A stretch of DNA of 64,000 nt, taken from an uncultured virus (IMG/VR IMGVR_UViG_3300025276_000028) (taxonomy: Duplodnaviria > Heunggongvirae > Uroviricota > Caudoviricetes). Positions 12,336 through 61,108 of the stretch are shown here, piece by piece (positions within the stretch are counted from its first letter, which is position 1; each line of letters starts with the position of its first letter). The stretch lies in IMG/VR virus record IMGVR_UViG_3300025276_000028; one strand, written 5' to 3'. The notes under the pieces are model-generated. The model searched no databases, was not told the DNA's origin, and worked only from the letters and a program-made list of their open reading frames with translations. A program made the position numbers and the translations under genes.

Positions 12336-12343
12336 TATAAATA
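12336..12343 (+). promoter_or_regulatory. T4-type late promoter
   Basis: TATAAATA upstream of prohead core genes. Confidence 0.75.
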
Positions 12344-12354
12344 TACTAAAGGTT

Positions 12355-18816: not shown

Positions 18817-18831
18817 ACGTTGGAGAAGACC

Positions 18832-30272: not shown

Positions 30273-30653
30273 ATGGCATATAGCGAACAAGTTCTAGACC
30301 ACTATGAAAATCCACGCAATGTTGGTAAACTAGACGAAACAGATCTAAACGTTGGAACAGGTATGGTCGGTGCACCAGCTTGTGGTGATGTTATGCGATT
30401 ACAGATTAAGGTCAACAATGAAGGTATCATTGAAGACGCTAAGTTTAAAACATACGGCTGTGGTTCTGCCATTGCGTCAAGCTCATTAGTTACTGAATGG
30501 ATGAAGGGTATGACTATTGATGATGCTGCAGCAATCCGCAATAGCGAGATATGTGAAGAGTTAGCTTTACCTCCAGTTAAAATCCATTGCTCTGTACTGG
30601 CAGAAGATGCTATTAAAGCTGCTGTTTTGGATTACAAAAGCAAGAGAGTTTAA
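30273..30653 (+). CDS. iscU: Fe-S cluster scaffold IscU
   Basis: [48 protein letters not shown]. Confidence 0.97.
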
Positions 30654-30655
30654 CT

Positions 30656-30979
30656 ATGGCCATCTCCATGTCTGATAATGCAGTGGATAGAATTAATGGT
30701 TACATTAGTAATAGAGGAGATACCCTTGGTATTCGCCTTGGTGTACGTACTACAGGTTGTTCAGGCCTTGCTTATATCGTAGAGTTTGCGGACATCCTAT
30801 TGCCAGGAGATATGGTCTTCAAAGAAAAAGGCATTAGCATAGTAATAAACACAAAGAGCTTGACGTACCTTGATGGTAGTCAGCTAGATTATACTAAAGA
30901 GGGTCTCAACGAAGGCTTTAAGTTTATTAACCCTAACGTCAAAGACGAGTGTGGATGTGGCGAAAGCTTCACTGTCTAA
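30656..30979 (+). CDS. iscA: A-type Fe-S carrier IscA
   Basis: [39 protein letters not shown]. Confidence 0.95.
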
Positions 30980-36150: not shown

Positions 36151-36205
36151 CTTTACGCCTTCTCTTTTTTGACTTTCTGTCATTCTTCTTTTTCTTTCTA
36201 GGCAT
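36143..36205 (-). CDS. 20-aa highly basic peptide
   Basis: MPRKKKKNDRKSKKRRRKEK; TAATG overlap with the upstream stop. Confidence 0.4.
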   Translation of the reverse strand: MPRKKKKNDRKSKKRRRKEK

Positions 36206-36540
36206 TATTTCTTCGAGGCCTTTGAGGCTTTCATAGCTGCAGCACCAAAGAACGCAGCAACAATACCAGCAACAGCAATAAAATATACTCCAGCCATATC
36301 GCCCAATATATCAGCGCCTTTGTCTAACCCAAATAGTGTAGCTATGACAACAGCAAATGGATATAACAACATTCCCCATAAAGCAAACCATGCCATTTCA
36401 CGTTGAGCATCTTCCTTCTTATCTTCATTCTCAAGCCTAATCATTCGCTCTTGCGTATCAAGTTCAGCATCTGTTACGACGTCATCGCTATTAAGGTCGG
36501 CCACGTTTAACTTGCTATCTGGTTGTAATTTCTTTGTCAT
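36205..36540 (-). CDS. Small two-TM membrane protein with an EF-hand-like loop
   Basis: DLNSDDVVTDAE (DxNxDxxxxxxE) followed by two hydrophobic helices and a basic tail. Confidence 0.6.
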   Translation of the reverse strand: MTKKLQPDSKLNVADLNSDDVVTDAELDTQERMIRLENEDKKEDAQREMAWFALWGMLLYPFAVVIATLFGLDKGADILGDMAGVYFIAVAGIVAAFFGAAAMKASKASKK

Positions 36541-36549
36541 CGTATTATC

Positions 36550-38601
36550 CTATTTAGTTGTTGCACGAAATATCCCATCCCAATCTTCGGGTAGGTCCTG
36601 AGTTAACATATATTTGCACCTTTTAATCCATATATCATAATAATCTTCCATCTGTCCGTAGAAGCTTACCTTTAATAACTTGCATAAGTGTATTGTAAGC
36701 TCAAAATCTTTATCAGTATATGCCGCATGCATTTCTTCATGTAATGCTTTAGACTTAACGTACGACGGATGACAACATTGCTGTAATACTGTATATATCT
36801 CCAATGCCACTGACTTTCCCTTTACTGCCAGGTTATCTAACTTGAGATAAAAGAAATCGTCACGCGTTCTTTCGTAAGTTTCTGCACCAACAATTAATAG
36901 TACACCGTATGACTTGCATGCAGATTCCAGGCGAGCTGCTGTTGATACTGCATCACCGAGGATGTCGTACGAATGTCTCGCCGTTGATCCCATTTCACCA
37001 ATATAGCCAAGACCAGTATTAACACCAGCACCGAGGCCGACAGGAGGTCTGCCTTCGAATGTAATTTTCTCATTAAACACCTCTACAGCTTTTAACATAT
37101 TGAGTGCAGTTTGCACTACGGTCTTTGGATGATTCTCGTCAGGTATTGGAGCATTATGAATGTGCATAGATGCATCGCCGATGTACTTAATAACCATTCC
37201 GTTGGCATCTAATATCGGTTGTGTTATAGCATCCATATATCCATTCATAATATCAGTCAAACCTTTTACGTCATCACCAAATGATTCGCCGATAGGAGTA
37301 AAGCCTCGCATATCAGTGAAGCATATCGATACTTCTTTCTTCACACCTTCTTTGATTAAAGCTGGATTCTTTTGTAACATCTTAACAACTGTAGGCGATG
37401 CATAGCCAGAAAACTGCTTCTTAATTTCTTGTTTCTCTTTAAACTCTATAACGAACCTAGCAAATACTGCATGCAGACCAACAACGATAACTGCGACAAT
37501 AGACATAGTGACGTCGATCAAATATAGATACTCAGTCCATGCATACCATGTGGCAAAACCAAGTCCACTAGTGAATGCGACAATACAAATACCTACTAAC
37601 CAGTATGGAGCAAACCTACCTAGCAATACTAATATTAATCCAAGGACTGCAGTCGTGGTTAACTCAACTATTGTACTCCACCATGGACGAGATATTGTAT
37701 CACCATCAAGTATGTTCTGTAATGACACCGCAGCAGGCATATAGTTATACTGTCCGCCTTTAGGTGATGCAATAACACCAGATATACCGGCAGCGGTTGT
37801 TCCGATGATAACGATCTTATCCTTCATCTCACTGAACCGATCGGTATCTGCAATACTTATAGTATCAAAGACCTTATTCCATCTTAACCATATACGTCCA
37901 TTAAAATCTGTTTGTATTGTAGGATAACCAGGTACTCGCATCTTATCGATACCACCGGCAGAACTCTTCACTTGGTATGATGGATCACCTACGGCAACAC
38001 GTATTATCTCAACAGCCAGAGCAGGGTATATGTCTTCGCCTACGCGAGCGAGCAAGGGTATACGCCTCAACACGCCATCAATCTCAGGTACGGCATTCAA
38101 AACGCCAACACCACCAGCATTATCTCCAAACTCTTTAATTGGTCCTAATATGCCATCCCAGGCGAACAAAAATGGCAAAGGATCGCCGATTTTAGCTACT
38201 CCACGCGGAACTCCGTACTTATTTGACTCAAAAGAGCCTACTTGACCGATCACAACCGCGTTATTTGTCATTGCATCGAGCAAATCCTTGTCACCTTCTA
38301 GCCTATCGTACTCAGAGAATAAGATCGGTAATACGATAACACCGGCTCCAGCCTGACGAAGTTCCCATATCACATTTGCAAGCACATCACGCTTCCATGG
38401 CCATTGCCCATGCTTCTCTAAAGCCTTCTCGTCAATAGTCAGTATTGCAATGTCGTTGCTTTGAACTGGCTTATCGTATTCTTGTAATAAGTCAAAGCTC
38501 TTTAGGCGAGCGGTCTGAACAACAGTACCATCGCTATAATGAAAGAACAATACCATAGATGCCGTAATAAATGCTAATGTCCAATGAGTAATAAGTTTCA
38601 T
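36550..38601 (-). CDS. CHASE2-domain class III adenylate cyclase
   Basis: IDEKAL..GQWPWKR, DGVLRRIPL (CHASE2); three TM helices; FTDMRGFT, KYIGDA, YDILGDAVSTAARLE. Confidence 0.92.
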   Translation of the reverse strand: MKLITHWTLAFITASMVLFFHYSDGTVVQTARLKSFDLLQEYDKPVQSNDIAILTIDEKALEKHGQWPWKRDVLANVIWELRQAGAGVIVLPILFSEYDRLEGDKDLLDAMTNNAVVIGQVGSFESNKYGVPRGVAKIGDPLPFLFAWDGILGPIKEFGDNAGGVGVLNAVPEIDGVLRRIPLLARVGEDIYPALAVEIIRVAVGDPSYQVKSSAGGIDKMRVPGYPTIQTDFNGRIWLRWNKVFDTISIADTDRFSEMKDKIVIIGTTAAGISGVIASPKGGQYNYMPAAVSLQNILDGDTISRPWWSTIVELTTTAVLGLILVLLGRFAPYWLVGICIVAFTSGLGFATWYAWTEYLYLIDVTMSIVAVIVVGLHAVFARFVIEFKEKQEIKKQFSGYASPTVVKMLQKNPALIKEGVKKEVSICFTDMRGFTPIGESFGDDVKGLTDIMNGYMDAITQPILDANGMVIKYIGDASMHIHNAPIPDENHPKTVVQTALNMLKAVEVFNEKITFEGRPPVGLGAGVNTGLGYIGEMGSTARHSYDILGDAVSTAARLESACKSYGVLLIVGAETYERTRDDFFYLKLDNLAVKGKSVALEIYTVLQQCCHPSYVKSKALHEEMHAAYTDKDFELTIHLCKLLKVSFYGQMEDYYDIWIKRCKYMLTQDLPEDWDGIFRATTK

Positions 38602-38609
38602 GTTATTCC

Positions 38610-39284
38610 TTAATTCTGCTCTACTATAAGAGAACAACCGTGATGGTTAGTGCATACACCATCCATAGTGTAAGACTGGTTGGTCTGTGAATTTTGGTTT
38701 AGTCTAAATGTATAAGCTCCACCGTCATTTGTTAACTCTACATTTGCAGAATGACTTCCATTCACTTGAGTTATTCGGGCATTGTGATTATTGTCTAAAA
38801 CCATCTCAACAGTGCTATTGTCAGTGTTTGCTTCTATATTAACTATATTGCTATTACCGACTATTTCCAGATTAATAGTATTGCCATTATCACCGCCATT
38901 ACCTATTTCGGTACGAGTGTAATTATTATTGCCTATAATGGATACTATAATATCGTTATCATTTCCGTGGTTATCTATTTTACTAGTGTTACTATTACCG
39001 ACTTGTGATGCTGTTAATACTTGGTCGTTACCAGATGTCCATGTACCTATTCTATTGTTATCGCCTGTCTGAGTAAAATTTACTGTTTTACCGCTACCAG
39101 CCAAAGTGCCACGGACACCTTGTCTCAGATGTAAATCCGCGATGCTATTATTTTCTCCATCCTGAGTAGAATTTAACACAAAGTTATGGCCAGACTGAAT
39201 TATATGTAAGTAGTTTGCCTCAGAATTAGTTGGCTTGAATAATACTAATATAATTACTATTGTCATTACCCAATGTATAGTCAT
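38610..39284 (-). CDS. Secreted curlin-repeat-like protein B
   Basis: Signal-peptide-like start; repeated Q/x-x-G-x-x-N units about 11 aa apart (QTGDNN, QVGNSN, NHGNDN, IIGNNN, IVGNSN). Confidence 0.65.
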   Translation of the reverse strand: MTIHWVMTIVIILVLFKPTNSEANYLHIIQSGHNFVLNSTQDGENNSIADLHLRQGVRGTLAGSGKTVNFTQTGDNNRIGTWTSGNDQVLTASQVGNSNTSKIDNHGNDNDIIVSIIGNNNYTRTEIGNGGDNGNTINLEIVGNSNIVNIEANTDNSTVEMVLDNNHNARITQVNGSHSANVELTNDGGAYTFRLNQNSQTNQSYTMDGVCTNHHGCSLIVEQN

Positions 39285-40362
39285 ATAGTTCACTTCCACC
39301 TTGCTGTAAGTCTATAGAATATCCATAGTCCTGGTTTAATCTTAACTCGACATAACCTTCTTCGTTATCTATGTCGCGTCTCTTAAATACCCAATTGGGT
39401 TCTTCGTTCTCAAGGGTTATTCCTGTCACTTCGTCATGACCGTATACAGTCTTATCCTGCCCCAGGTATCTTTTATTTTGCGATAATAATACGTCGTTTA
39501 TTAGCCTACTTAATTGAAAGTTTAGTTGATCTAATAGGTTACGCAACAAATCACCAAGGAGAAATTGTGTATTGTCTAATGAAGATACCCAAAGGCTTTC
39601 CGTTGTTTCTAGCTCGTCCTCATCAAGTCCATCGTATTTCAAGAAGTCTACATTTAGAAAATCTGCAGTTTTATTCAGTTCCGCAATTTGTTCTGCTTCT
39701 TCGTAGTATGGATTAACCTTTCTAAGTATAAGAAGACTGTTAATCATGTCTTCGTCAAGATCAAGTATTAAAGGTCTCGTCGGTGCCGCAACGCTTGTAG
39801 TTGTTATCGTAGCCTGAAATGCCTTATTGAGTAGCACATAACCTGCATCCGTTTCTACTGAGATCTCACCAACAAAACACATTCCGGAAGTATCGCAAGA
39901 TGGCAGTAACGTAATCATCGATCCGCCTATCTCGTCCACAACCATAATAAAGTCAGTGCCACGAACACCAATAGTTGCAGAAGGTGTTCGTATCTTAACG
40001 TTTTGCCGTGAGTTCTTTGCTATCTGTCCTGATGCATAACGTATAGTTCCAAGGCTAGCTTTCAATCCTAATGAACCTTTCCCTGTTTCAGCATCATATA
40101 CAAAGTCATCTATTATTAGACGAGAGTGCTCTGTTATGTCAACGCGGGTTTCATCTATGAACTCAATCCGCATATTAGCATTAGCAGTCACCGCAGTGTC
40201 GAGCATCTCTATTGATCCTCCTTCCTCTGCAGTTTCAGCATCCTCGCCTCGTTCAATAGCACCTGAACCAGAGATCATTGAAATCTGGCCTATTGAATCA
40301 CCATACGCATTAATAGATAATAATACACTAATCACGCTGAATAATATTAATCGCATGTCCAT
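39226..40362 (-). CDS. Periplasmic FecR-domain protein
   Basis: Signal peptide; D...T......I.F.D.T.V.I.EHS.L.IDDFVYD, GTIRY.SG.I.K, V.I.TPSATIGVRGTDF. Confidence 0.85.
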   Translation of the reverse strand: MDMRLILFSVISVLLSINAYGDSIGQISMISGSGAIERGEDAETAEEGGSIEMLDTAVTANANMRIEFIDETRVDITEHSRLIIDDFVYDAETGKGSLGLKASLGTIRYASGQIAKNSRQNVKIRTPSATIGVRGTDFIMVVDEIGGSMITLLPSCDTSGMCFVGEISVETDAGYVLLNKAFQATITTTSVAAPTRPLILDLDEDMINSLLILRKVNPYYEEAEQIAELNKTADFLNVDFLKYDGLDEDELETTESLWVSSLDNTQFLLGDLLRNLLDQLNFQLSRLINDVLLSQNKRYLGQDKTVYGHDEVTGITLENEEPNWVFKRRDIDNEEGYVELRLNQDYGYSIDLQQGGSELYDYTLGNDNSNYISIIQAN

Positions 40363-41044
40363 CGCCGTTTGTAGTTAGGTCTATCAGATTGTCATTTATG
40401 CCAGACTGATTAAGTACTACTACGTGTCCCCTACCGGTTGCAGCGAACGTCATAGTATGTCCTATAATATCACCATTACCTGCCACGTCAATATCAAGCG
40501 ATGAGTTAGCGCTTGCACTACTTGAAGATCCGGCAATGGTGACAGTTACAACCGCACTCGTACCTTCTATATCAGTAGCTATCACGTTATTGGAATCAGT
40601 GACTGTAAAGTTTACTATCGCACCTGCCGCACTTGCACTCTGTCCTATGTTAATAGTATACGCTTGAGCATTGCCAACCGCAGTTATATTGAGTGTTACT
40701 GTACCGCAGTTTGCTGCAGAACTTGACGAACATAATAATGCAACAGCGTTATTATTACCGGTAAACGCCCACGTTCCGGTGTATGTGGCACCTAAAATTT
40801 GTGCGGTAATTGAGTTAGTATTACCGGTTTGAGTAATATTAAACGTCATTGAGTCTGAGGCATTACCCTGTGACCCAAGGACTACGTCCTGTGATGACGT
40901 ACCGATTGTATTGTTTTGACCATCCTGCACTATATCAAGATCTAAAGTATCGCCCACTTGTGCTATGTAAATATCGTTTGCTAAGACGATACTAGTTATT
41001 AAGGATAGTACTACACCAAAATAATATTTCTTCATACATTTCAT
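40328..41044 (-). CDS. Secreted curlin-repeat-like protein A
   Basis: Signal peptide then ANDIYIAQVG; QDGQNN, QTGNTN, FTGNNN, QSGIND repeats. Confidence 0.7.
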   Translation of the reverse strand: MKCMKKYYFGVVLSLITSIVLANDIYIAQVGDTLDLDIVQDGQNNTIGTSSQDVVLGSQGNASDSMTFNITQTGNTNSITAQILGATYTGTWAFTGNNNAVALLCSSSSAANCGTVTLNITAVGNAQAYTINIGQSASAAGAIVNFTVTDSNNVIATDIEGTSAVVTVTIAGSSSSASANSSLDIDVAGNGDIIGHTMTFAATGRGHVVVLNQSGINDNLIDLTTNGDGHAINIIQRD

Positions 41045-41056
41045 TCTACCTCTTTG

Positions 41057-41221
41057 TTACCAGAACTTAACTTTTTTACCGACCCATTTAGCACCGCTCA
41101 CACCTTTATTATAACCGTTTACATGGAAGTCCTTGACGACAACCCATTGAGTGCTTAAGGCGGATGTTGTAGTACCCCATGCCTTGTTACCAGCGTCTTT
41201 ACCTTTATTCCAAATACCCAT
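41057..41221 (-). CDS. 54-aa Lys/Gly/Trp-rich peptide (not in ORF track)
   Basis: GGAG RBS; MGIWNKGKDAGNKAWG...AKWVGKKVKFW; fills the gap between csgG and curlin A. Confidence 0.55.
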   Translation of the reverse strand: MGIWNKGKDAGNKAWGTTTSALSTQWVVVKDFHVNGYNKGVSGAKWVGKKVKFW

Positions 41222-41235
41222 ATTATTCTCCTAAG

Positions 41236-42039
41236 TTAAATTTTATTGGTGACGAACTTCCACAACTGTTTCCGTTCTCCCTCTCGAATTATCTCTATGA
41301 CACCTGCTTCTACTGCAGCCCTCACCGCATAATTTACTGGTTCGTTCCTACTATAACCCATTTCGGCTTCGATTACTTTAGTTCCCATATCGAGGAACTT
41401 AAAGACGTCAGTGCTCGAGCGATGGGATGATATTGTCTTCTCTGTAGCAACACTTAACAATACCTTACCAGTTGACACACTCACAAGTCTCATTACGATC
41501 GTGACTGTATCAGTTCTATATTCCTTTGTGGCTCCAATGCCTAAATAACGTGCACCAGTTCCACCTACAAGTGTATCGGAATCATATCCAATAATACCAC
41601 CTTCTAATATAAGCCCAGCGAATGTCATTGGCTTTAATGGTGTCGGTCCATTCTTTAGGTTTTTCTCATATACTTCTCGTGTATTACGTACTAGCTGGCG
41701 TTCCTTAACCAGATTATCTAATCCGATTCTTTCTACAACTTCGAACCATGTACCATTGCCTACTTCCTGTAGAGCTTTAATAACCCATACTTCGGATCCT
41801 TGTGTGACTGCAGAAGATAAGCTCGAGCCAATCTCGGATGACTTTCTCTGGCCAGTCTTATCGGTAAAACTATAAACAGCAATTGTCATCTTTTTGCCGT
41901 CTAGTTCTTCCATGTTTTCCAACTCACCACCAAGAGGCGATGACTGAGCAATCGGAGGAATAGGATCGTTCAGCCAGTTGCCGAATGTTGAACAGGCCCC
42001 TAATAATAAACATAAAATAGATGTTATAATAATTTTCAT
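41236..42039 (-). CDS. csgG: Curli secretion pore lipoprotein, CsgG/HfaB family
   Basis: Lipobox LGAC; AVYSF.DKTGQRK, S.AVTQG, WF.VVER.GLDNL.KERQ, EGGIIGYD, GARYLGIG, NEPV..AV..A.E. Confidence 0.92.
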   Translation of the reverse strand: MKIIITSILCLLLGACSTFGNWLNDPIPPIAQSSPLGGELENMEELDGKKMTIAVYSFTDKTGQRKSSEIGSSLSSAVTQGSEVWVIKALQEVGNGTWFEVVERIGLDNLVKERQLVRNTREVYEKNLKNGPTPLKPMTFAGLILEGGIIGYDSDTLVGGTGARYLGIGATKEYRTDTVTIVMRLVSVSTGKVLLSVATEKTISSHRSSTDVFKFLDMGTKVIEAEMGYSRNEPVNYAVRAAVEAGVIEIIREGERKQLWKFVTNKI

Positions 42040-42044
42040 AAGTA

Positions 42045-42073
42045 TGTACAAATGCCTCAAACTATGATATAAT
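42045..42073 (+). promoter_or_regulatory. Sigma70-like promoter antisense to csgF
   Basis: TGTACA-N17-TATAAT inside a minus-strand operon. Confidence 0.7.
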
Positions 42074-42094
42074 AAGACTGTTGTCTGCTAAGGG

Positions 42095-42559
42095 TTAGAA
42101 TGTAAATTCACCTGCACCCGGTATAGTTATTGTAGTGGTACTATCATCATTAGATATATTAAGAGTTATCTCACCTGTAATAGGATCCTTCTTCCATGCT
42201 ATAAGACTGCCTTCTATCTCTGCTGAGCCGCTTCCTGCACAATCTTCTACGCATTCGGCAAACATAGAATCCACCATCTGTTTAGATAATGTGGCATATA
42301 TACGAGATTCAAGGTTCTTAATGAATTTATTTAATGTAGTACTTGCTAGTGCTCTTTCAAGTCGTTTCTGTTCTGACGCTATAGCACCTGCTTTGTCTTC
42401 TTCTCTATTAAATTGTAGTTGCTCAATACTTAACACATGTGAACTATAGCCAATGCCAGTGAATGAAGGATTCTTAAAACGATAAGACATTCCTGCATCG
42501 ACAGTATTAATGTAAGTCAGAAGTATTATCAGCGCTATCGGTACCAGGTAGCTCTTCAT
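42095..42559 (-). CDS. csgF: Curli assembly protein CsgF homologue
   Basis: Signal peptide then MSYRFKNPSF.G (compare CsgF F.NP.FGG); F...LESR....LS..; C-terminal TTITIP; adjacent to csgG. Confidence 0.8.
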   Translation of the reverse strand: MKSYLVPIALIILLTYINTVDAGMSYRFKNPSFTGIGYSSHVLSIEQLQFNREEDKAGAIASEQKRLERALASTTLNKFIKNLESRIYATLSKQMVDSMFAECVEDCAGSGSAEIEGSLIAWKKDPITGEITLNISNDDSTTTITIPGAGEFTF

Positions 42560-42791
42560 TATCTTTTTCCTGTTGTCGAATAACCATATCTAGTTTAGTA
42601 TTAAGGCGTATAAGATCATTGTCTAACATACGTATTCTATCAATCAATCCTATCAATGTCATATGGGACTCTGATACAACCGGATCAACTTCTTCGGTTA
42701 CCCATGTCCATATATGATAGATGAAATAACCGAGGCCACATGCTGCAATAATAGGAAAGCCATATTGACTAATCGCTGATGCTATATCCAT
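42507..42791 (-). CDS. Small membrane protein, YvrJ-like N-terminus
   Basis: ISQYGFPIIAA TM helix plus coiled coil; paralogue of the upstream gene. Confidence 0.65.
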   Translation of the reverse strand: MDIASAISQYGFPIIAACGLGYFIYHIWTWVTEEVDPVVSESHMTLIGLIDRIRMLDNDLIRLNTKLDMVIRQQEKDNEELPGTDSADNTSDLH

Positions 42792-43069
42792 TAATCCTTC
42801 CTCGCATCCTTTTGGCCATCAGCCCTAGCAATCCTATCATAGTCAGGTCTAATATTAAATGCCTGGCACATTTTAACGTCAATTCGTATGAGCTCGTTGT
42901 TCATAGTCTTAACTCTATTATCAAGTGCAACGGCAAACATACGTTGTGTCTTTATGTCATCAAGCACACCAGCAAGGATAAACTTTAAAGTCGTGAATAC
43001 AAAGAACCCACCGCCAAGTGCTGCAGCAATAGGAAATCCAACATCAGATATTAATTGCAAAAAGTCCAT
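42791..43069 (-). CDS. Small membrane protein, YvrJ-like N-terminus
   Basis: ISDVGFPIAAA TM helix; L..R...M.N.LIR.D.K shared with its neighbour. Confidence 0.65.
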   Translation of the reverse strand: MDFLQLISDVGFPIAAALGGGFFVFTTLKFILAGVLDDIKTQRMFAVALDNRVKTMNNELIRIDVKMCQAFNIRPDYDRIARADGQKDARKD

Positions 43070-47438: not shown

Positions 47439-47687
47439 ATGTCTTTAATAATTACCGACGATTGCATTAATTGCGATATATGTCTCCACGAGTGCCCTAA
47501 CGATGCTATATCCGAAGGGCAAGAAATATACGAGATTGACAAAGATAAGTGTACTGAATGTGTAGGTCATTTTGACGAGCCTCAGTGTGTTGAAGTATGT
47601 CCGGTTGACTGTATACCGAAAAACCCGCATAATGTAGAAACACACGATCAACTAATGGATAAGTTTGTTCTACTGACTGCAGCCTGA
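47439..47687 (+). CDS. 2[4Fe-4S] ferredoxin, YfhL family
   Basis: CINCDIC...CP and CTECVGHFDEPQCVEVCPVDCI. Confidence 0.93.
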   Translation: MSLIITDDCINCDICLHECPNDAISEGQEIYEIDKDKCTECVGHFDEPQCVEVCPVDCIPKNPHNVETHDQLMDKFVLLTAA

Positions 47688-50781: not shown

Positions 50782-50810
50782 TGTACATACAAGTTGTATT
50801 GTGTTATAAT
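50782..50810 (+). promoter_or_regulatory. Early/middle promoter
   Basis: TGTACA-N17-TATAAT. Confidence 0.75.
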
Positions 50811-50836: not shown

Positions 50837-51280
50837 ATGTCAGTAGATTTAGTAAGTGATATTCATAATATGCACACAAAGTATGGTGTTCATAAATGGA
50901 TGTTAACACAAATGAAAGAAGGTAACGCAGATTCACTACGAAAGTTCTTAGAGTTTCGAATCAACTTTCTATCAGAAGAATTAGATGAAACTTATAAAGC
51001 TCTTTCAGAGAATGATGCAGAAGAAGTAGTTGATGGTCTTATCGATCTATGTGTTGTTGCCATTGGCACATTAAACGCATTCGGTGTTGATGAGAATGAA
51101 GCGTGGGATCGTGTGTATATTGCCAATATGAATAAGAACGTAGGTGTTAAAGAAGGTCGTCCAAATCCCCTTGGACTTCCAGACTTAGTAAAGCCAGAAG
51201 GTTGGACTGCACCATCACACGCAAATAATCATGGCAATATACCATACGCATTAACTGGTAAACACAGCGAGACGGACTAA
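50837..51280 (+). CDS. MazG-like / PRA-PH all-alpha NTP pyrophosphohydrolase
   Basis: R..FL.EEL.E......D.EEVVDGLID, V..ANM.K, KPEGW.AP. Confidence 0.8.
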   Translation: MSVDLVSDIHNMHTKYGVHKWMLTQMKEGNADSLRKFLEFRINFLSEELDETYKALSENDAEEVVDGLIDLCVVAIGTLNAFGVDENEAWDRVYIANMNKNVGVKEGRPNPLGLPDLVKPEGWTAPSHANNHGNIPYALTGKHSETD

Positions 51281-51281
51281 A

Positions 51282-52226
51282 ATGTACCAAGTAACAATAT
51301 TCAATTCAATATACGACAATAAGACCGACAAGGTACTGACGTTTGATACATGGGTTGAATTTGTTACTTTACTTAAAAGGTTATCAACTCAGCCAGGTTA
51401 TAAGCCAAAGAAAGATGAAAGAGCTAAAGGTTCATCACTCATTTCTCCAGCGGTTTATGAATCTGGCACAACTCGTTCTATGCACAACGCTACAAGCTGG
51501 GCAGGATGGGCTGCACTTGATATTGATGACTATGAAGGTACATTTGACCAGTTGTTACAGAAGTATTCTAAGTATGAATATGTCTGTTACTCCACGCCGT
51601 CGTCAAGTGAAGATAAGCCTAAATGCCGTATGGTATTAAATCTTACTCGTGCTGTCGGCAAGGATGAATTTAGACACTTCTGGTATGCAACTAACATTGA
51701 GTTCGGTGAAGTGGCAGATGCACAAACAAAGGATATATCACGTATGTTCTATGTGCCTGCTGATTATCCAGATGCATATAACTTCTTTATCCATAATGAT
51801 GGAGAGGTGTTAGATCCGGCAGTATTAATGGATAAGCATACCTTTGTAGGTGGTCTACAGAGAACTTATGGCGGATCATTCTTTGATCGTCTGCCAGAAT
51901 CCATGCAAACTATTATTGTACAGCATAGAAAAGATTCTTCTGATAATACAAATTATTCGTGGTCATCATATCATAATTGTCCATTTATATCAAAGAAAAT
52001 AATTAACGAATATATGTCAATTTCAGAGACTGGCTGGTACCGTAAAATGTATCAGATGATGGTTGCTATAGCATATCGTGCAGTTGCAAAGGGCTATCCA
52101 ATAACCTCATCTGAAATCAGTATATTGTGTAAGGAGATCGACCGTGACACTGGAAACTGGTATGAAAGCCGTCCAATAGAACACGAGGCAGATCGAGCAA
52201 TTGAGTACGTCTATAGGAACGTTTAA
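51282..52226 (+). CDS. Primase-polymerase (AEP)-like protein
   Basis: AALDIDD (DxD), YST.SS...KPK.R.VL.L.R, D.QTKD.SRMFYVP. Confidence 0.55.
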   Translation: MYQVTIFNSIYDNKTDKVLTFDTWVEFVTLLKRLSTQPGYKPKKDERAKGSSLISPAVYESGTTRSMHNATSWAGWAALDIDDYEGTFDQLLQKYSKYEYVCYSTPSSSEDKPKCRMVLNLTRAVGKDEFRHFWYATNIEFGEVADAQTKDISRMFYVPADYPDAYNFFIHNDGEVLDPAVLMDKHTFVGGLQRTYGGSFFDRLPESMQTIIVQHRKDSSDNTNYSWSSYHNCPFISKKIINEYMSISETGWYRKMYQMMVAIAYRAVAKGYPITSSEISILCKEIDRDTGNWYESRPIEHEADRAIEYVYRNV

Positions 52227-52227
52227 T

Positions 52228-52761
52228 ATGAAAGAGTATGTTGAGTTATTTAAGAATCCAGTTAAAGTATCAATTAATAAAACTGAAGACCGCGCTTTGT
52301 GGATGGCTGAAGGTATTTACGATAATATAAAATCACGAAAAGGTCGTGATTGGAATAAAGTATATTGGGACACACTCGGTGGTGTCGTATGCGAAGAAGG
52401 TGTAGCATCATTGTGTGGTGAATTGAATACTCAAGAGTTTGATGTAACAGATAGATCTACCTATGGGTGGGATGTGATGTCTAAATTTGGCCATAAGATA
52501 GAAGTTAAACGCCATAAAGAAATATGGTATTCGTTTTATCAAACTGCAGTGAATACATTACATAATTCAATTGAAGCCAAAGCTTTTGATTATATAGTGA
52601 CTGCATCTTATGAGAAGTTTACTGATCATTATCTAGTAAGACCTAGATTGATTATAGAACCTTTGACTTTCCGTAAGTACACTCGCGATTCAAAATATAG
52701 TACAGGTTTATACTATGATCACTATGCAGCCAAAGGTAAGAATCAATGCATAATCTTTTAA
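52228..52761 (+). CDS. Putative PD-(D/E)xK nuclease
   Basis: G.VCE upstream, then YGWDV......IEVK. Confidence 0.45.
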   Translation: MKEYVELFKNPVKVSINKTEDRALWMAEGIYDNIKSRKGRDWNKVYWDTLGGVVCEEGVASLCGELNTQEFDVTDRSTYGWDVMSKFGHKIEVKRHKEIWYSFYQTAVNTLHNSIEAKAFDYIVTASYEKFTDHYLVRPRLIIEPLTFRKYTRDSKYSTGLYYDHYAAKGKNQCIIF

Positions 52762-52770
52762 AAATAAGTG

Positions 52771-52799
52771 TGTACATTTGCGTCCGTTTGTGGTATAAT
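52771..52799 (+). promoter_or_regulatory. Early/middle promoter of the modification operon
   Basis: TGTACA-N17-TATAAT. Confidence 0.75.
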
Positions 52800-52830
52800 A
52801 GTACCATAAATTTATTAAACAGGAATTTGT

Positions 52831-53142
52831 ATGAAATACGATGAAGGTAAGACTGATCTATCCTTAATGCCACCAGAAGCTCTAGCTGAAATCTCTCGTG
52901 TATTGATGTTCGGTGCTGAGAAGTACGGTCGCAACAACTGGCGTGATGATGGTAATACCACACCTCATTCACGTACCTACGCGTCTGTTCAACGTCATCT
53001 AAATTCATATTGGCAAGGTGAAGACTTTGATCCAGAATCAATGCAACGTCATCTAGCTCATGCAGCCACTCAATTAATTATCCTTATGATGCATACCCAT
53101 GACGGTCATGCTAATATGGATGATCGCTATCCACCATTCTAA
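52831..53142 (+). CDS. dATP/dGTP diphosphohydrolase domain protein (DUF5664-like)
   Basis: KYD.GK..LSL.P..AL.E..RVL.FGA.KYG.NNWR, RHL.....GED.DPES...HLAHA. Confidence 0.8.
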   Translation: MKYDEGKTDLSLMPPEALAEISRVLMFGAEKYGRNNWRDDGNTTPHSRTYASVQRHLNSYWQGEDFDPESMQRHLAHAATQLIILMMHTHDGHANMDDRYPPF

Positions 53143-53153
53143 GGAATAATATA

Positions 53154-53840
53154 ATGAATGTTTCAGACATACGCAAATACTTTATTGAAGAACTAAAGAA
53201 TAAGAACTTCACTAAAGATAAATCTGGCCAAGAAACTATTGAGCTTATCGGTGCATCTTTTATTGCTGATGAACAATCTATATTCGGTGTACCAAACAAA
53301 CAGTATATCGATAAAGAGATTAAATGGTATCAATCCGGATCAACTAACGTTAATGACATTTATGGTAAAGAGTTCGTAAAGGCTCCAGAAGCATGGGTCG
53401 GTGCTGCAGATAAGTATGGCAATATTAATAGTAACTATGGTAAGTTAATCTTTGACAGTGAATATCACAATCAATATAATCATGCTTTAGGTGAGTTATT
53501 AAATAACCCTGATAGTCGTCGTGCTACTATGGTTTATACTCGTCCAAGTATATGGCGTGAGTTTAACAAAGGCGGTATGTCAGATTTTATATGCACTAAC
53601 GCTGTGACATATTATGTTCGTGATGGTAAGCTAAACGCAGTTGTTCAAATGCGTTCTAATGATGTTGTCTTCGGATATAAGAATGATTGGGCATGGCAGA
53701 TGTATGTATTAAAAAATATGGTTATAGATTGGAATAAAGACAGTTTCGCAATGCTACAAGGATCTATTGAGGTTGGCACTATAACATGGCAGGTACAAAA
53801 CCTTCATGTATATTCTAGGCATTTCGACCTTGTCAAATAA
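53154..53840 (+). CDS. gp42: dCMP hydroxymethylase-like (T4 gp42 family)
   Basis: TIE.IGASF.ADE..IFG, INSNYG, NPDSRR..M.YTRPS, GMSDF.CTN, MRSNDVVFG.KND, LHVYSRHF; cytosine-specifying Asp retained. Confidence 0.85.
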   Translation: MNVSDIRKYFIEELKNKNFTKDKSGQETIELIGASFIADEQSIFGVPNKQYIDKEIKWYQSGSTNVNDIYGKEFVKAPEAWVGAADKYGNINSNYGKLIFDSEYHNQYNHALGELLNNPDSRRATMVYTRPSIWREFNKGGMSDFICTNAVTYYVRDGKLNAVVQMRSNDVVFGYKNDWAWQMYVLKNMVIDWNKDSFAMLQGSIEVGTITWQVQNLHVYSRHFDLVK

Positions 53841-54288
53841 CAAATGGACTCGCAGGTATATAGACCTCGCAAAATCAGTTTCAGAGTGGTCAAAAGATCC
53901 TTCTCGTAAAATAGGTGCAGTTGCTATTGGAGATAAGGGTCAGATCCTAGCACAAGGATTTAATGGCTTCCCTCGTGGAATAACTGATTCAGTAGAACGT
54001 TATAATAACCGCGAGCTCAAATATAAGTTTGTTGTTCATGCCGAAATGAATGTTATATATAACGCGTCGTATAACGGTGTATCACTCGATGGTGCTGATC
54101 TATATGTCTATGGACTACCTATTTGTAGCGACTGCGCAAAAGGTATTGTACAAGTAGGTATAAAGCGTGTTATAATGCCTATGCCAACTGAAATTCCTGA
54201 GCAATGGGTTGCCTCATGGGAATTAAGTAAAACTATGTTTGAAGAAGCTGGAGTAAAATATGTCTTCTGTGATTACGAATCCGATTAG
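53830..54288 (+). CDS. dCMP deaminase
   Basis: WSKDPS..IGAV, GFNGFPRG, HAEMN, PICSDC; start uncertain. Confidence 0.88.
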   Translation: MSNNKWTRRYIDLAKSVSEWSKDPSRKIGAVAIGDKGQILAQGFNGFPRGITDSVERYNNRELKYKFVVHAEMNVIYNASYNGVSLDGADLYVYGLPICSDCAKGIVQVGIKRVIMPMPTEIPEQWVASWELSKTMFEEAGVKYVFCDYESD

Positions 54289-55231
54289 CAATATTCCTAT
54301 CAATATTAAGTCCCATACACACGGATGGGCACAGGTATGGAAGCATCAGTTAGATGCGTCTATTGATCATAAATGCACATCAAAGATTAAACTAGCAGAG
54401 ACTGTTTATATCGACCATGGAGCAAACTTTGGCGGTACACTAAATCTATTTGGTGGCGCTGCTCAAGAAGTATATGATCGTATTAATATCGTCTTATCAT
54501 GTAGGAATATTATATCGCTTGATCATGATATGCCTGACTATGGCGTTATGTTAAAGCCTCGTATTGGTGCAAAGACTACGTTTGAAGGTATCACCGAGGA
54601 ATGGTGTGATGCAGTCAGCAAGCGATTGTCCACGGTTAAATCATTAAAGCAGGAAGATCTAATCACGGACGGTATCACTGTAGGTGATTCACATACAATT
54701 GCATTCGCTGCTCCTGGTGATATGGTTCTACGCAATGATGGTAAGACATTACACGGTGCAATGAAACATGGTCTAAAGGACATGTTCAGAGGTGCACCAA
54801 AGCGCCATAAGCGTATCACGTTTTCTTTAGGTTCTATTGACATACGTCATCACATCCTACGCCATGAGGATTTCAATCTAAAGCATTTTATTAATGAATA
54901 CGTATCGCAAGGAGAAGCAATTGATGCTGATGTGTATTATGCAGCGCCAGTTCCTGTTGAGTTCGAAGATAGACGTATACCTAAGACCGGATACTATAAG
55001 AAGACTGCATTTTATGGTACGGAATATGAACGTCGTGAACTAACTAATAGATTCATTGACGAGCTTGATACAAGGTCGGGTGGTGGTAGAGTTATTATGC
55101 CACCTTCTGACTGGTACACTATGGATTCTAAAACATACGCCAATACCTTTATGGAGCATGGATCTTCTTTCCATATTGCTCCACCATTTTATAGGCATAA
55201 CGATTGGGGAGTAAGTTCTTTTGGCTCATAA
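54260..55231 (+). CDS. Hypothetical protein with an SGNH-like C-terminal domain
   Basis: GDSH block I, GKTLHG, LGSIDIRHH, late S.H. Confidence 0.5.
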   Translation: MSSVITNPISNIPINIKSHTHGWAQVWKHQLDASIDHKCTSKIKLAETVYIDHGANFGGTLNLFGGAAQEVYDRINIVLSCRNIISLDHDMPDYGVMLKPRIGAKTTFEGITEEWCDAVSKRLSTVKSLKQEDLITDGITVGDSHTIAFAAPGDMVLRNDGKTLHGAMKHGLKDMFRGAPKRHKRITFSLGSIDIRHHILRHEDFNLKHFINEYVSQGEAIDADVYYAAPVPVEFEDRRIPKTGYYKKTAFYGTEYERRELTNRFIDELDTRSGGGRVIMPPSDWYTMDSKTYANTFMEHGSSFHIAPPFYRHNDWGVSSFGS

Positions 55232-56120
55232 TAATCACGTAACTGACGGGTTCAATAAAGACGTTTCACCTTTATATGGAATGTCAGCCGCATTAGAATA
55301 TTATTTAGATCTAGCACGTGATTGGGAAGATCCTAATCCAGCACCACGTATTACTACGCACGAAGGTATTAGAGTAGTCCGTGACGATGATCTTGTAGGA
55401 AGTAAAGTGCGAGGTGGCGATTGTCTTATATCAACACTACCCGAACACATTGACACCATCGTCTATGTACAACCACGTACTGGTCTGGCTGGTGTTTCGC
55501 TTCTTGATGTGGCAAAACGTCATGGTAAGAAAGTTAAACTATTCATGCCATCTTCAAAGAAGATATCGGTACATCAGGCTTGCTGTATTGAACGTGGATG
55601 TGACTATGACTTCTATCGTATTGCAGCGATGCCTAACCTAAATCTTATTGCAAAGAAATGGGCAGACAGACATCCTAATGCATTCTTTGTTCCTCTTGGA
55701 TTGAAGCATGAATTAGTTACTGCTGGTTTCGTTAAGGTTGCATCGAGGATTAAAGAGCCTGATGAAGTATACCTTGCAACATCAACAGGTGTACTCACAC
55801 GATCACTTCAAATAGCATGGCCTAATGCAAAGTTTACTTCTGTATGTGTGTCACGTAATATGAAGGCTGGCGAGTTAGGTGTAGCAGAACCTATATCAGA
55901 ACCACTTGCCTTTCAAGCATCCGAGAAGACACACAACCTTCCACCATTTCCTAATATTGCAACATACGATGGTAAAGTCTGGAAGTACATACCTAAGAAT
56001 AGTGATAAAGATATTCTATTCTGGAACGTTGGCGGTGAGCCTGAACTACTAGATGATTCTATATACGATAGAATCGATTCATACAGAGACTGGAGTAAAA
56101 ATGAAACAACCGTGGCTTAA
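55221..56120 (+). CDS. PLP-dependent enzyme, fold type II
   Basis: VRDD....GSK.R (PLP lysine), F.PLG, ATSTG phosphate loop, YDGK.W, LFWNVG; resembles ACC deaminase / D-cysteine desulfhydrase pattern. Confidence 0.75.
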   Translation: MAHNNHVTDGFNKDVSPLYGMSAALEYYLDLARDWEDPNPAPRITTHEGIRVVRDDDLVGSKVRGGDCLISTLPEHIDTIVYVQPRTGLAGVSLLDVAKRHGKKVKLFMPSSKKISVHQACCIERGCDYDFYRIAAMPNLNLIAKKWADRHPNAFFVPLGLKHELVTAGFVKVASRIKEPDEVYLATSTGVLTRSLQIAWPNAKFTSVCVSRNMKAGELGVAEPISEPLAFQASEKTHNLPPFPNIATYDGKVWKYIPKNSDKDILFWNVGGEPELLDDSIYDRIDSYRDWSKNETTVA

Positions 56121-57126
56121 CGAAGAAGCAATAGACGTATTCTCTAACTACTATTATCCTAGGGCAAAATGGTTACAGGATAACGTTAACTGGGGAGATT
56201 CTGATTACTTTTGTGATGAGGCTGATGTTGCTGTTAATGATCCGCTCATGCAGACCATAGACATTTATGACTGTTACACTCGTAATGCTGCAGGATTCTC
56301 TAATGTACCACAGGACTTATGGTTCGGTTCAAAGACTCCTAAGTCAAGATGGCATAACGAGCAACGTCGTGAATTAAATGCATCTAATGATAGTATCGAT
56401 TGGGATATGAAAACATGGTTATATGTATTTTTATGTCATCGTATTATGGGATCGGGTGCATCATTTGAGAATGATCATGGTTATCGTAATAACGTGGTTC
56501 AGCATTGGGGTAAGTATAAGACTATCGAAGAGATGGCTGCAAACATGGTTGAAACCAAGTCACGTGGTGTTCCAATGTTTACCTCTATTGGTAACCAACC
56601 ACCTGCTCCAAAGAAAGGCACATCAAACGTAGACTATATGTCAATCGAACTTCCACCACTCATTGACCGTTTTCATAAATGGCTTATACTAGAAACTCGT
56701 GGGCATAAGGATATTGTAGACTACCTTAATGGATACAATGCTGAAGTAGGTCATAGGAAGTTTAACTTTGTATATGCAGCATTCTCAATGGATTGCTCTG
56801 ACTACTTTCCTGAATATGTTGATGTGGATTCACATACTTATTTAGGTAATAATGCAGTAAGATGCATGAAACGATTATCATCAGGATGGAAGGCGGATGA
56901 CTTTATGGACTTACTGGTTGAACGTACAGGTGGTAAGGCAAAAGATTTAGAGGATGTTATGTGTGATTTTGTTAGATTTGGTCAGAATTATGTACCACGT
57001 GGCAATGGAACATTTGATCATGTATCATCTGCATTATCGAATGGTTCAGGATGGGTATCCGGATGGGATCAAAGGCAAGGAAAGCCGCCAGAAAAAGGTT
57101 TACAATTGGATGCATTCATGTTATAA
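56101..57126 (+). CDS. Putative base-modifying helical transferase (aGPT-Pplase-like)
   Basis: F.YAAF..D..DY, LG.NA.R, D.EDV.CDF.R C-terminal motif resembling E..LCEF.KY; operon context. Confidence 0.5.
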   Translation: MKQPWLNEEAIDVFSNYYYPRAKWLQDNVNWGDSDYFCDEADVAVNDPLMQTIDIYDCYTRNAAGFSNVPQDLWFGSKTPKSRWHNEQRRELNASNDSIDWDMKTWLYVFLCHRIMGSGASFENDHGYRNNVVQHWGKYKTIEEMAANMVETKSRGVPMFTSIGNQPPAPKKGTSNVDYMSIELPPLIDRFHKWLILETRGHKDIVDYLNGYNAEVGHRKFNFVYAAFSMDCSDYFPEYVDVDSHTYLGNNAVRCMKRLSSGWKADDFMDLLVERTGGKAKDLEDVMCDFVRFGQNYVPRGNGTFDHVSSALSNGSGWVSGWDQRQGKPPEKGLQLDAFML

Positions 57127-60418: not shown

Positions 60419-61108
60419 ATGACAGCTAGTTTAATATCGTATTCTCAACCACCAGCAGGCAGTACAATAACTCTTAACACAGAATCGGATAACGAAATTT
60501 TAACTAATTTGATTTCATTTTGTGCAAGAGTATCAGCTCCAGACAACCAAGATGATTATTCATCTGGTCAAAAGCTGATTAATTACCTGGTTAAGCATCA
60601 GCATTGGAGTCCACTTGAGATGGTCTCTGCATGTATTGGTATTGAAACGACCCGAGATATTGCACGTCAATTTCTTAGGCATCGTTCGTTTTCGTTTCAA
60701 GAGTATTCACAACGATACGCAGATCCTACTAAAGATCTAGAGTTCGTATTGCGTGAAGCACGTTTGCAAGATCCGGTCAATCGTCAGAATTCGATTGAAT
60801 GTGGTCCTGAGCATCTTGATACTATGATTGAGTGGGGACGTCGTCAGAAATCAGTAATTGATCTGGCAGAAGAATCATATCGTTGGGCAGTGTCGAAAGG
60901 CATTGCGAAAGAATGTGCAAGGGTTGTTTTGCCTGAGGGTAATACTATCTCGCGTGTTTATGTCAATGGTACTATCCGATCGTGGGTTCATTATGTTGAT
61001 CTACGTTCATCCAATGGAACACAGAAAGAACACATGCAAATTGCTAGAGCTTGCTCTAAAGTATTGCAGTCCATCTTTCCTAACATAGAGAAATACACGC
61101 ATGATTAA
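60419..61108 (+). CDS. thyX: Flavin-dependent thymidylate synthase
   Basis: CARVS, HWSPLE, RQFLRHRSFSFQEYSQRY, AKECAR.VLP, TQKEH. Confidence 0.95.
   Translation: MTASLISYSQPPAGSTITLNTESDNEILTNLISFCARVSAPDNQDDYSSGQKLINYLVKHQHWSPLEMVSACIGIETTRDIARQFLRHRSFSFQEYSQRYADPTKDLEFVLREARLQDPVNRQNSIECGPEHLDTMIEWGRRQKSVIDLAEESYRWAVSKGIAKECARVVLPEGNTISRVYVNGTIRSWVHYVDLRSSNGTQKEHMQIARACSKVLQSIFPNIEKYTHD

Follow-up and report, generated by a model that had tools for sequence, protein, structure and literature searches.

This analysis concerns a cluster of nine genes, a candidate system for modifying DNA bases, in a 64,000-nucleotide (nt) stretch of DNA from an uncultured virus (IMG/VR record IMGVR_UViG_3300025276_000028). 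The whole 64-kb stretch, called the window below, is part of an uncultured T4-like myophage, with T4-type genes for portal, capsid, sheath, terminase, clamp loader, RegA, UvsW, UvsY, UvsX, and gp41. Among deposited phages, its DNA polymerase reaches at most 53% identity (to Phage C48C1), with marine cyanophages at about 47%, and the record nearest to the window is an IMG/VR fragment in which the cluster is identical. The nine open reading frames (ORFs), designated A through I, lie between gp43 and uvsX, all on the plus strand and all at the positions given in an earlier model-generated reading of the sequence (the original prediction). They overlap or abut one another, apart from a gap of 70 nt between C and D and one of 60 nt between gp43 and A, and E has GYKND, G has GDSH, and I has LEDVMCDFVRF, the motifs that the prediction had picked out. 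The nine ORFs were scanned with Pfam (E <= 0.01) and PHROG, and the other 83 ORFs of the window at E <= 1e-4. NCBIfam has no family for A, B, C, D, G, H, or I, and a megablast search of the cluster against 50,697 phage records gave no match.

Gene E (53154..53840, +) encodes a member of the thymidylate-synthase family, an ortholog of T4 gp42, the deoxycytidine monophosphate (dCMP) hydroxymethylase, or 5-hydroxymethyl-dCMP (5hm-dCMP) synthase. In a phmmer search its residues 1-227 matched residues 6-225 of the solved T4 enzyme (PDB 1b49/1b5e) at E 4.5e-69 and 236 bits, while other chains scored 35 bits (9iqu/9iqc, short chains named 'thymidylate synthase') and 32 bits (MilA), and its motifs FICTN, GYKND, and SDFIC align with FMCTN, GFRND, and SDFMC of T4. 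The residues by which such enzymes may be told apart are laid out, in E. coli ThyA numbering, in a 2026 paper (PMC13326640): Cys146 is catalytic, Asp at 177 specifies cytosine, and an acidic residue at 143 admits water. E keeps Cys146, carries L143D and N177D (the cytosine-specifying Asp foreseen in the original prediction), and retains Asp169, and the same signature is found in all nine sequences compared (the window, seven marine relatives, and gene 42 of Aeromonas phage 25). The last residue matters, as the same account describes phage homologues of thymidylate synthase that yield 5-hydroxy-dCMP and proposes D169N as diagnostic of them (PMC13326640); E and its eight relatives read R-S-N-D, with Asp169 in place. 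Given the match to gp42 and a residue signature that includes Asp169, E is a hydroxymethylase by every available sequence criterion, and we take it from its sequence to be a gp42-type 5hm-dCMP synthase, not a 5-hydroxy-dCMP synthase of the RB69 gp48 type.

The setting of E is also that of T4, where the genes run 43 - imm - 42 - b-gt - segA - uvsX - 40 - 41. The window keeps the frame 43 ... 42 - modifier - uvsX - 41, and G, H, and I occupy the b-gt slot. The orthologous hydroxymethylase, the neighbourhood, and the presumed purpose, the protection of cytosine-replaced DNA, are thus shared with the glucosylation of 5-hydroxymethylcytosine (5-hmC) by T4. The modifiers are not: in place of the alpha- and beta-glucosyltransferases of T4 stand three unrelated enzymes, and no GT-B glucosyltransferase was found. 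Indeed, the family scans matched no glycosyltransferase family in the nine cluster ORFs (E <= 0.01) or in the other 83 (E <= 1e-4), in keeping with the earlier remark that no glucosyltransferase is visible in the window.

Protein I (56101..57126, +) is predicted from an AlphaFold2 (AF2) model and structure searches to have the helix-hairpin-helix (HhH) DNA-glycosylase fold and to belong to the superfamily of aGPT-Pplase proteins and amino-acid:DNA transferases (AADTs). The ORF opens at 56053, and homologues start at the ATG at 56101, which gives 341 amino acids (aa). It has no Pfam family and no PHROG, tblastn against the 50,697 phage records found no match, its profile found nothing under E 0.25 among PDB sequences, and its family comprises 216 clusters in the protein collection, none of them with a Pfam domain among the 120 listed. 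The model, built with 38 homologues, is all-helical (pLDDT 89.2). Among viral models (BFVD), Foldseek returned three proteins of uncultured phages, with E values from 1e-14 to 8e-13 and an ADDT annotation on one of the three; the match to the ADDT-domain protein A0A6J5L8T5 has E 7.5e-14 and TM 0.78, and further matches are to Pplase1 proteins and then to the helical domains of 5-hydroxymethyldeoxyuridine (5-hmdU) DNA kinases. Foldseek against the PDB gave nothing at E <= 0.001, with AGOG-type rows at E 0.7-2 only. VIA, a search of 48,161 PDB chains that does not depend on Foldseek, placed gp46 of phage PaMx11 (PUGT, 8z2m) at rank 1, with Z 8.9, a root-mean-square deviation (rmsd) of 3.8, and 204 residues aligned (model 12-304 against chain 8-264), and HhH glycosylases and DUF2419 proteins account for 14 of the 16 rows that follow.

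I carries the motif E284-D-x-x-C288-D-x-x-R292; of 71 representatives (at <=50% identity), 70 have the Glu and 69 the Cys. The spacing E284-x3-C288 is that of PUGT, and the place of the motif relative to the ends of the VIA alignment fits as well. PUGT is described as attacking C6 with Cys247 while Glu243/Thr244 hold a metal at O4 (PMC11472151), and the Cys and its neighbouring Glu are reported as essential in M6 gp51 and in ViI gp247 (Glu282/Cys287), the nucleophile of the latter being a serine's side-chain hydroxyl (PMC8989533). The ADDT-domain viral models and PUGT speak for the helical, glycosylase-like aGPT-Pplase fold that had been foreseen for I, and the Glu-x3-Cys motif is that of the same family.

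Protein G (54260..55231, +) appears from its AF2 model (pLDDT 84.5) to consist of an alpha/beta N-domain (about residues 1-130) and an SGNH/GDSL-fold domain (about 136-320). It has no Pfam family, and no Pfam SGNH model matched it. For residues 136-320, the best VIA match is the GDSL esterase 7e16 (Z 11.5, rmsd 3.5, 161 residues aligned), and 59 chains reach Z >= 8, the best 50 of these being nearly all SGNH/GDSL-fold enzymes (esterases and acyltransferases); the SGNH-like character claimed for the GDSH protein is thereby borne out as to fold. Across 96 distinct sequences of the family, GDSH is kept in 96, His305 in 95, and Glu299 in 94, I-D-x-R-x-H and Arg196/238/258 are invariant, and the catalytic candidates are Ser144 and His305. 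The N-domain (residues 1-132) gave no usable match in the Atlas. A kinship of this domain with the N-domain of T4 b-gt was considered and dropped: hhalign gave a 13-residue match, at the same position in the two proteins, with E 0.03 and a probability of 1.7%.

The company that G keeps ties it to the helical proteins. Among 140 representatives of family I, eight are longer than 450 aa, and seven of these join a G-like N-terminal half to an I-like C-terminal half; all seven of these metagenomic fusions keep the Cys motif. A different fusion is found in culture. Homologues of G are present in 40 deposited phage genomes, 38 of them from Aeromonas phages, and in ORF233c of Aeromonas phage 44RR2.8t (795 aa) the N-terminus is a G homologue while residues 371-795 match an HMUDK_hel-type profile (E 7e-62; E 5.6e-80 in a search of the genome). 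Both 44RR2.8t and Aeromonas phage 25 encode a gene-42-type enzyme; in Aeromonas phage 31, too, G is fused to a helical domain, and H is absent from all three phages. By these sequences, G and a helical base-enzyme form a recurring pair that has been fused in two independent ways, which parallels the fusion of kinase and helical domain in the 5-hmdU DNA kinase (5-HMUDK). The immediate neighbours of G in these phages may be recorded here: in phage 25, a UDP-galactopyranose mutase (GLF, E 5e-54) and a 358-aa protein of phrog_14998 (3728-5909 of the locus), and in 44RR2.8t, a sodium:solute symporter (SSF, E 6e-53; 4357-5880 of the locus). The 358-aa neighbour in phage 25, p227nc, was tried as a helical partner and rejected, being of neither I, HEL, nor AADT type by hhalign.

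Searching with the fused proteins brought in 298 further viral contigs with relatives of G, and with them a second cassette from other uncultured phages, in the order DUF6378 - G - myo-inositol-1-phosphate synthase - FkbM methyltransferase - HMUDK_hel protein. Among a further 80 loci, 48 reach at least 5.5 kb downstream of G, and 46 of the 48 hold an HMUDK_hel-type protein; 46 also hold myo-inositol-1-phosphate synthase (Ino1), the two exceptions being a G-I fusion and locus L172. Like the window cluster, the cassette pairs a protein of the G family with a helical protein, and the superfamily of the latter is the same in both. It differs in that the helical partner is of another clade, which passes the Pfam HMUDK_hel cut-off and has no significant hhalign match to family I or to AADTs, and in that Ino1 and FkbM replace H. 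A homologue of thymidylate synthase is adjacent in 11 of the 80 loci, and this E-like enzyme is more distant (27-38% identity).

Two neighbouring observations belong with this cassette. In the inositol-type locus L097, between inositol-1-phosphate synthase and the FkbM methyltransferase, lies a 340-aa protein (11676-12698) with similarity to the N-terminal portion of the Pfam family for T4 beta-glucosyltransferase (E 3.6e-7). And in Caulobacter phage Cr30 (NC_025422), a cultured T4-like phage, positions 4957-9235 hold in a row a dATP/dGTP pyrophosphohydrolase, the ADDT-like gp123 (tblastn E 1e-5 against ViI gp247), a 308-aa hypothetical protein, and inositol-1-phosphate synthase, which may amount to an inositol-linked cassette for DNA modification in a phage available in culture.

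Protein H (55221..56120, +; phrog_7093, E 5e-30) appears to be a divergent fold-type-II (PALP) protein resembling enzymes dependent on pyridoxal phosphate (PLP), as the original prediction had it. Its match to Pfam PALP lies below threshold (E 0.0037, with 17 bits where 35 are required), and some members of the family carry a precomputed PF00291 match. Its presumed Schiff-base lysine, Lys62 in GSKVRG (G-S/T-K-x-R), does not vary among 16 sequences, one of them a domain joined to a DNA methylase. The family profile matched only cysteine synthases in the PDB (E 0.45-0.8), and H alone found chance ribosomal rows only. An Atlas search returned only the protein's own viral clusters; the family has 1462 clusters, and the Atlas clusters listed are 100% viral. 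The motif YDGKxW...LFWNVG..P, invariant in the H family, is common to H and ViI gp226, which is reported to be a PLP decarboxylase acting on DNA-bound serine (PMC8989533) and is itself a sub-threshold PALP match. H also matches a CysK-type phage enzyme that adjoins G in one inositol-type contig. The methylase fusion just mentioned is gp1 of Erythrobacter phage vB_EliS_R6L (KY006853, about 807 aa), an N6/N4 DNA methylase with an H-homologous PALP domain (PALP E 2.5e-10) and a PAPS-reductase-like gene nearby; it may be another DNA-modifying PLP enzyme.

The linkage of these genes was followed through 80 IMG/VR loci containing I, of which 33, with I flanked by 3.5 kb or more on either side, were counted as informative. 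E, G, and H accompany I in all 33, so the genes do co-occur in relatives, as the prediction had required. The order is E-F-G-H-I in 21 loci, E-I-H-G..F in eight, E-I-H-G in three, and E-G-H-I in one, and the polymerases of the related loci are 51-65% identical to that of the window. Such constancy bears on a deflationary account of G, H, and I, that they do not modify DNA at all and are an auxiliary set, serving for instance amino-acid or cell-envelope ester metabolism, that happens to lie among replication genes. SGNH and PALP are indeed large metabolic superfamilies, all three proteins fall below curated family thresholds, and structural Z values of 9-11 indicate fold, not function. However, I has a DNA-glycosylase fold and matches DNA-base transferases and glycosylases best, G is fused to helical domains of DNA-base enzymes of two clades, a domain like H occurs in one protein with a DNA methylase, H's own clusters in the Atlas, as far as listed, are entirely viral, and the three genes keep their place next to the hmC synthase, where T4 has b-gt, in every informative locus. 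We therefore give the metabolic account very little credence.

Set beside the thymidine pathways of ViI, M6, and PaMx11, the cluster shows both likenesses and differences. Those pathways consist of a deoxyuridine monophosphate (dUMP) hydroxymethylase, 5-HMUDK, an AADT (aGPT-Pplase clade 2) that follows the kinase and takes the phosphorylated hydroxymethyl group, and a PLP decarboxylase (ViI gp226, M6 gp52). Here too an enzyme of the thymidylate-synthase family would yield a 5-hydroxymethyl pyrimidine nucleotide, an HhH-fold protein carries Glu-x3-Cys, a probable PALP-like PLP enzyme is present, and the genes cluster with all-alpha dNTP pyrophosphohydrolases. The base here would be cytosine, E being of the gp42 type with Asp at ThyA 177, and the cluster has no P-loop DNA kinase; the constant partner is instead an SGNH-fold protein, even fused to the helical domain. 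That no 5-hmdU DNA kinase lies in the cluster had been predicted, and neither HMUD2 nor HMUDK_hel matched any of the nine proteins. HMUDK_hel, Glycos_transf_1, and Glycos_transf_2 were each found in none of five related records (69-152 kb). The window does encode a P-loop kinase elsewhere (Zeta_toxin/AAA_33; 26435-27121, +), between regA and an Hsp20 gene, with a match to phrog_12810 (E 1.5e-45) and a weak match to a polynucleotide-kinase PHROG. It was rejected as a conserved activator, being present in just one of the five larger related records.

From the sequences and models together, it seems probable, if some way from assured, that the cluster makes 5-hmC and then decorates it, by a hypermodification that is post-replicative, independent of a kinase, and probably amino-acid-derived. 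The first half, synthesis of the hmC nucleotide before replication, is well supported by sequence: E would convert dCMP to 5hm-dCMP, A and/or D would clear deoxycytidine triphosphate (dCTP), F would feed dUMP to the thymidylate synthase ThyX, and the DenB-like C would cut cytosine-containing DNA. After replication, we infer, G, H, and I would act on 5-hmC in the DNA polymer. I would flip the base out, Cys288 would attack C6 with Glu284 as acid/base, as in PaMx11 PUGT, and the oxygen substituent of the C5 methylene would be expelled, whereupon a nucleophile would be added to the exocyclic methylene. G would be an obligate partner, filling the role that a P-loop 5-hmdU DNA kinase has in the thymidine pathways, and most likely would make the hydroxyl a better leaving group, for example by esterification via Ser144/His305; SGNH acylation as the activating step, one of the chemistries suggested in the original prediction, is consistent with the G-I fusions. 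H would trim the appended amino acid or, less likely, make the nucleophile. That the attached group derives from an amino acid we infer from H alone. The product would be an amine-bearing 5-substituted cytosine, one guess being the cytosine analogue of the 5-(2-aminoethoxy)methyl base of ViI. C5-cytosine methyltransferases can swap the hydroxyl of 5hmC for thiols, so by analogy a substitution without prior activation is conceivable, with G then in another role.

A number of observations weigh against this reading. For I, the Z of 8.9 to PUGT is modest for an all-helical protein, with AGOG glycosylases (8.8) and DUF2419 level with PUGT, though the list as a whole is coherent. Pfam ADDT (PF18724) matched none of 38 close members of the family at E <= 10, none of 22 further distant representatives, and one of 50 distant representatives, there at E 0.001 and 19.3 bits against a cut-off of 26.2, and hhalign of the family against ViI gp247 alone and against a four-sequence AADT alignment was not significant (E 0.61 and 0.26). 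The motif of I, E-D-x-x-C-D-x-x-R, differs from the E-[TS]-x-x-C-x-x-K of clade 2, and the correspondence of Cys288 to Cys247 of PUGT is read from motif spacing and alignment ends. Because fold and Glu-x3-Cys fit while sequence membership fails, we place I, with the model as guide, in a divergent AADT-like clade of the superfamily that is not filed under Pfam ADDT. For G, block III reads G-x-I-D, with the Asn lost, and the Asp of block V, three residues before His305, has become Ser or Gly; SGNH enzymes are mostly esterases, and acylation of DNA by G is a proposal from its fold. Moreover, the complete genome of Aeromonas phage 25 has G and no detected helical partner, so G can work without such a partner or with one that escapes detection. 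For H, the hhalign matches are weak, both to the CysK-type phage enzyme (E 2.5e-4, 144 columns, probability 43%) and to ViI gp226 (E 4.6e-4, probability 33%, a 31-column C-terminal motif), and pairwise BLASTP of H against ViI gp226 is not significant. The 33 informative loci are kin, not independent samples, so the association of E, G, and H with I amounts to retention through divergence and rearrangement and not to independent co-occurrence. The five related records are 38-86% complete, which leaves room elsewhere in the genome for a kinase or a glycosyltransferase.

To these may be added the sugar genes of some relatives. In two of the loci, L027 and L025, a gene of the UDP-glucose/GDP-mannose dehydrogenase family directly follows I (L025 9231-10022); in L027 an NAD epimerase/dehydratase comes after the dehydrogenase gene (both within 9066-10846), and a DAHP_synth_1 (KdsA-like) gene and a cytidylyltransferase gene lie upstream of E (2328-4452). 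Gene content of this kind points to sugars, not amino acids, in those lineages. Since such genes lie inside the cluster of some relatives, the attached group probably differs between lineages. The same evidence feeds the main rival to the amino-acid reading: I would transfer a hydroxyl nucleophile, from a sugar, a sugar acid, or an inositol-like polyol, to the C5 methylene of hmC, G would process an ester on donor or product, and H would make or edit the donor. Besides L027 and L025, one may cite the symporter and the mutase that stand beside G in 44RR2.8t and phage 25, the myo-inositol-1-phosphate synthase flanked by G and a helical protein in 46 of the 48 informative loci of the second cassette, the absence of glycosyltransferase families 1 and 2 (GT1, GT2) from the five related records, and the hydroxyl nucleophile that ViI gp247 is already described as taking (PMC8989533). 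Against this, the window's own cluster has no sugar-nucleotide gene, H is present and its informative links are all to PLP enzymes that handle amino acids, and the sugar genes occur in some lineages only while E, G, H, and I are constant. A sugar or polyol in the window phage is accordingly unlikely, in our estimation, and by no means negligible.

There is precedent for sugars on a related base. RB69, DLP3, and RL38J1 are described as carrying arabinosylated or hexosylated 5-hydroxycytosine, made by way of a 5ho-dCMP synthase, genes for nucleoside diphosphate (NDP)-sugars, and GT-B transferases (PMC13326640). These systems resemble the window cluster in using a thymidylate-synthase homologue that acts on dCMP and in having the modification cluster next to the polymerase; the UDP-galactopyranose mutase of RL38J1 recurs in Aeromonas phage 25, and some relatives of the window carry NDP-sugar genes. 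They differ in the synthase, D169N there and Asp169 retained in E, and in that no GT-B transferase was found here.

If the amino-acid reading of the window cluster is set within the wider distribution of G, a broader proposal suggests itself, which we offer only tentatively and regard as rather doubtful: G would found a new class of DNA-nucleobase enzyme, an SGNH-fold protein that, in the role of a P-loop kinase, makes the hydroxymethyl group of 5-hmC ready for substitution, and so provide aquatic phages with a modular, kinase-independent platform for hanging different nucleophiles on the base. The nucleophile might be an amino-acid-derived amine here, inositol in the second cassette, and sugars elsewhere, the partners being HhH Cys-transferases of at least two clades, and in the window phage the result might be a base new to description, for example 5-(2-aminoethoxy)methylcytosine.

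To our knowledge, every characterised C5 pyrimidine hypermodification of the AADT type starts from 5-hmdU and needs a DNA kinase, and the known decorations of hydroxymethyl- and hydroxy-cytosine are glycosylations. We found no published description of an SGNH or AADT-like enzyme set acting on hmC in the literature searched, which omits most subscription journals. New here are the reading of E against the signature of the 5-hydroxycytosine synthases, the two kinds of fusion between G and a helical domain, the cultured Aeromonas carriers, the count of inositol-type cassettes, and the links of H to ViI gp226 and CysK. If the proposal is true, amino-acid or amine chemistry would extend to cytosine, and there would be a second, kinase-free way of activating a hydroxymethyl base. 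Since the families of I, H, and G are abundant (144 viral contigs encode a relative of I) and their members come mostly from aquatic metagenomes, a large share of the DNA of uncultured T4-like phages may bear a base that sequencing and restriction methods misread. The chemistry is testable in culture, because 44RR2.8t and phage 25 carry both the G family and gene 42, and epigenetic labelling could make practical use of enzymes for derivatising 5hmC in DNA.

For the remaining genes of the cluster, the family matches agree with the identities first proposed for A, B, C, D, and F. A (50837..51280, +) encodes a MazG-like all-alpha nucleoside triphosphate pyrophosphohydrolase (Pfam PRA-PH, E 7e-9; phrog_671, E 8e-21; the MazG-like DR2231 in the PDB, E 1.5e-3), a candidate dCTPase/dUTPase, present in 27 of the 33 informative loci. 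D (52831..53142, +) is a dGTP_diPhyd_N (formerly DUF5664) domain, another all-alpha nucleotide pyrophosphohydrolase (Pfam E 1.4e-28; phrog_801, E 3e-33), with no match in the PDB and a presence in 7 of the 33. C (52201..52761, +) is a DenB-like endonuclease (endonuclease IV; phrog_1360, E 2.3e-10), detected in only 3 of the 80 related loci. T4 endonuclease IV cuts cytosine-containing DNA, and by analogy C would do likewise. The nuclease and the two pyrophosphohydrolases, with the substrates presumed for them, fit, as far as sequence goes, a phage that excludes cytosine from its DNA. B (51282..52226, +) encodes a protein that is primase-like at its N-terminus, of the archaeo-eukaryotic primase (AEP) kind (phrog_9765 'DNA primase', E 8e-52; Pfam BT4734-like_N, E 0.0015, under its cut-off), and it is found in 26 of the 33. 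With no match in the PDB, it was left out of the mechanism as a conserved neighbour only, and the suggestion that an AEP-like protein activates the base by nucleotidylation gains no support.

F (53806..54288, +) is a dCMP deaminase (Pfam E 9e-17; phrog_174, E 1e-41) that overlaps both E and G. It is found in 29 of the 33 loci and in the second gene order is displaced beyond gp41; its likely part is to provide dUMP for ThyX, and its link to the module is loose. ThyX itself, a flavin-dependent thymidylate synthase (60419..61108, +; Pfam Thy1, E 1.9e-39), is the separate source of deoxythymidine monophosphate that the original prediction had noted. The prediction had also raised another use for the deaminase, in which F converts 5hm-dCMP to 5hm-dUMP and G, H, and I build a hypermodified thymine as in ViI and M6. 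The overlap of F with E and G is suggestive in this respect, as is the description of all characterised AADTs as acting on 5-hmdU derivatives (PMC8989533, PMC11472151). Yet F is the least conserved member of the module and changes place, dCMP deaminase is an ordinary source of dUMP in T4-like phages, ThyX is present, no hydroxymethylase of the dUMP type (Asn177) was seen, and no member of the 5-hmdU DNA kinase family was found in the cluster or in the five related records. The acidic pair in E-D-x-x-C-D of I, set against the clade-2 motif, might moreover suit recognition of the cytosine amino group. Nothing particular to this phage was found in favour of a route to hmU by deamination of hm-dCMP, and we hold it to be highly improbable.

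The two gaps in the cluster each contain a promoter-like site on the plus strand, TGTACA-17 nt-TATAAT: a TG-extended one at 50782..50810, between gp43 and A, where it is a consensus match only, and one with an upstream TG at 52771..52799, between C and D, with an identical pair of hexamers. The original prediction had two promoters driving the cluster. Their identity and their placement, one to a gap, agree with this, but the region as a whole has 30 such sites against 27.4 +/- 5.2 in shuffled sequences, hence no excess, so the case for the two promoters lies in placement, not in statistics.

Elsewhere in the window are several genes apart from the cluster. On the minus strand at 36205-43069 is an island with inverted GC skew and a cargo unusual for a T4-like phage: an adenylate/guanylate cyclase with a CHASE2 sensor (36550-38637), a FecR-domain protein (39226-40362), and the curli-secretion components CsgG (41236-42060) and CsgF (42095-42559). 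At 18820-19932 (+), between a homologue of the late sigma factor gp55 and a gp47-like nuclease, is a protein resembling the alpha subunit of Rieske-type ring-hydroxylating oxygenases (Pfam Ring_hydroxyl_A, E 9e-6); NCBIfam gives it weak matches to the N-terminal ends of oxygenases for anthranilate, benzoate, and glycine betaine. The window also encodes Fe-S assembly proteins, one like NifU/IscU (30273-30979, +; E 6e-53) and one like IscA (47439-47687, +; E 4e-17), and a 2x[4Fe-4S] ferredoxin.

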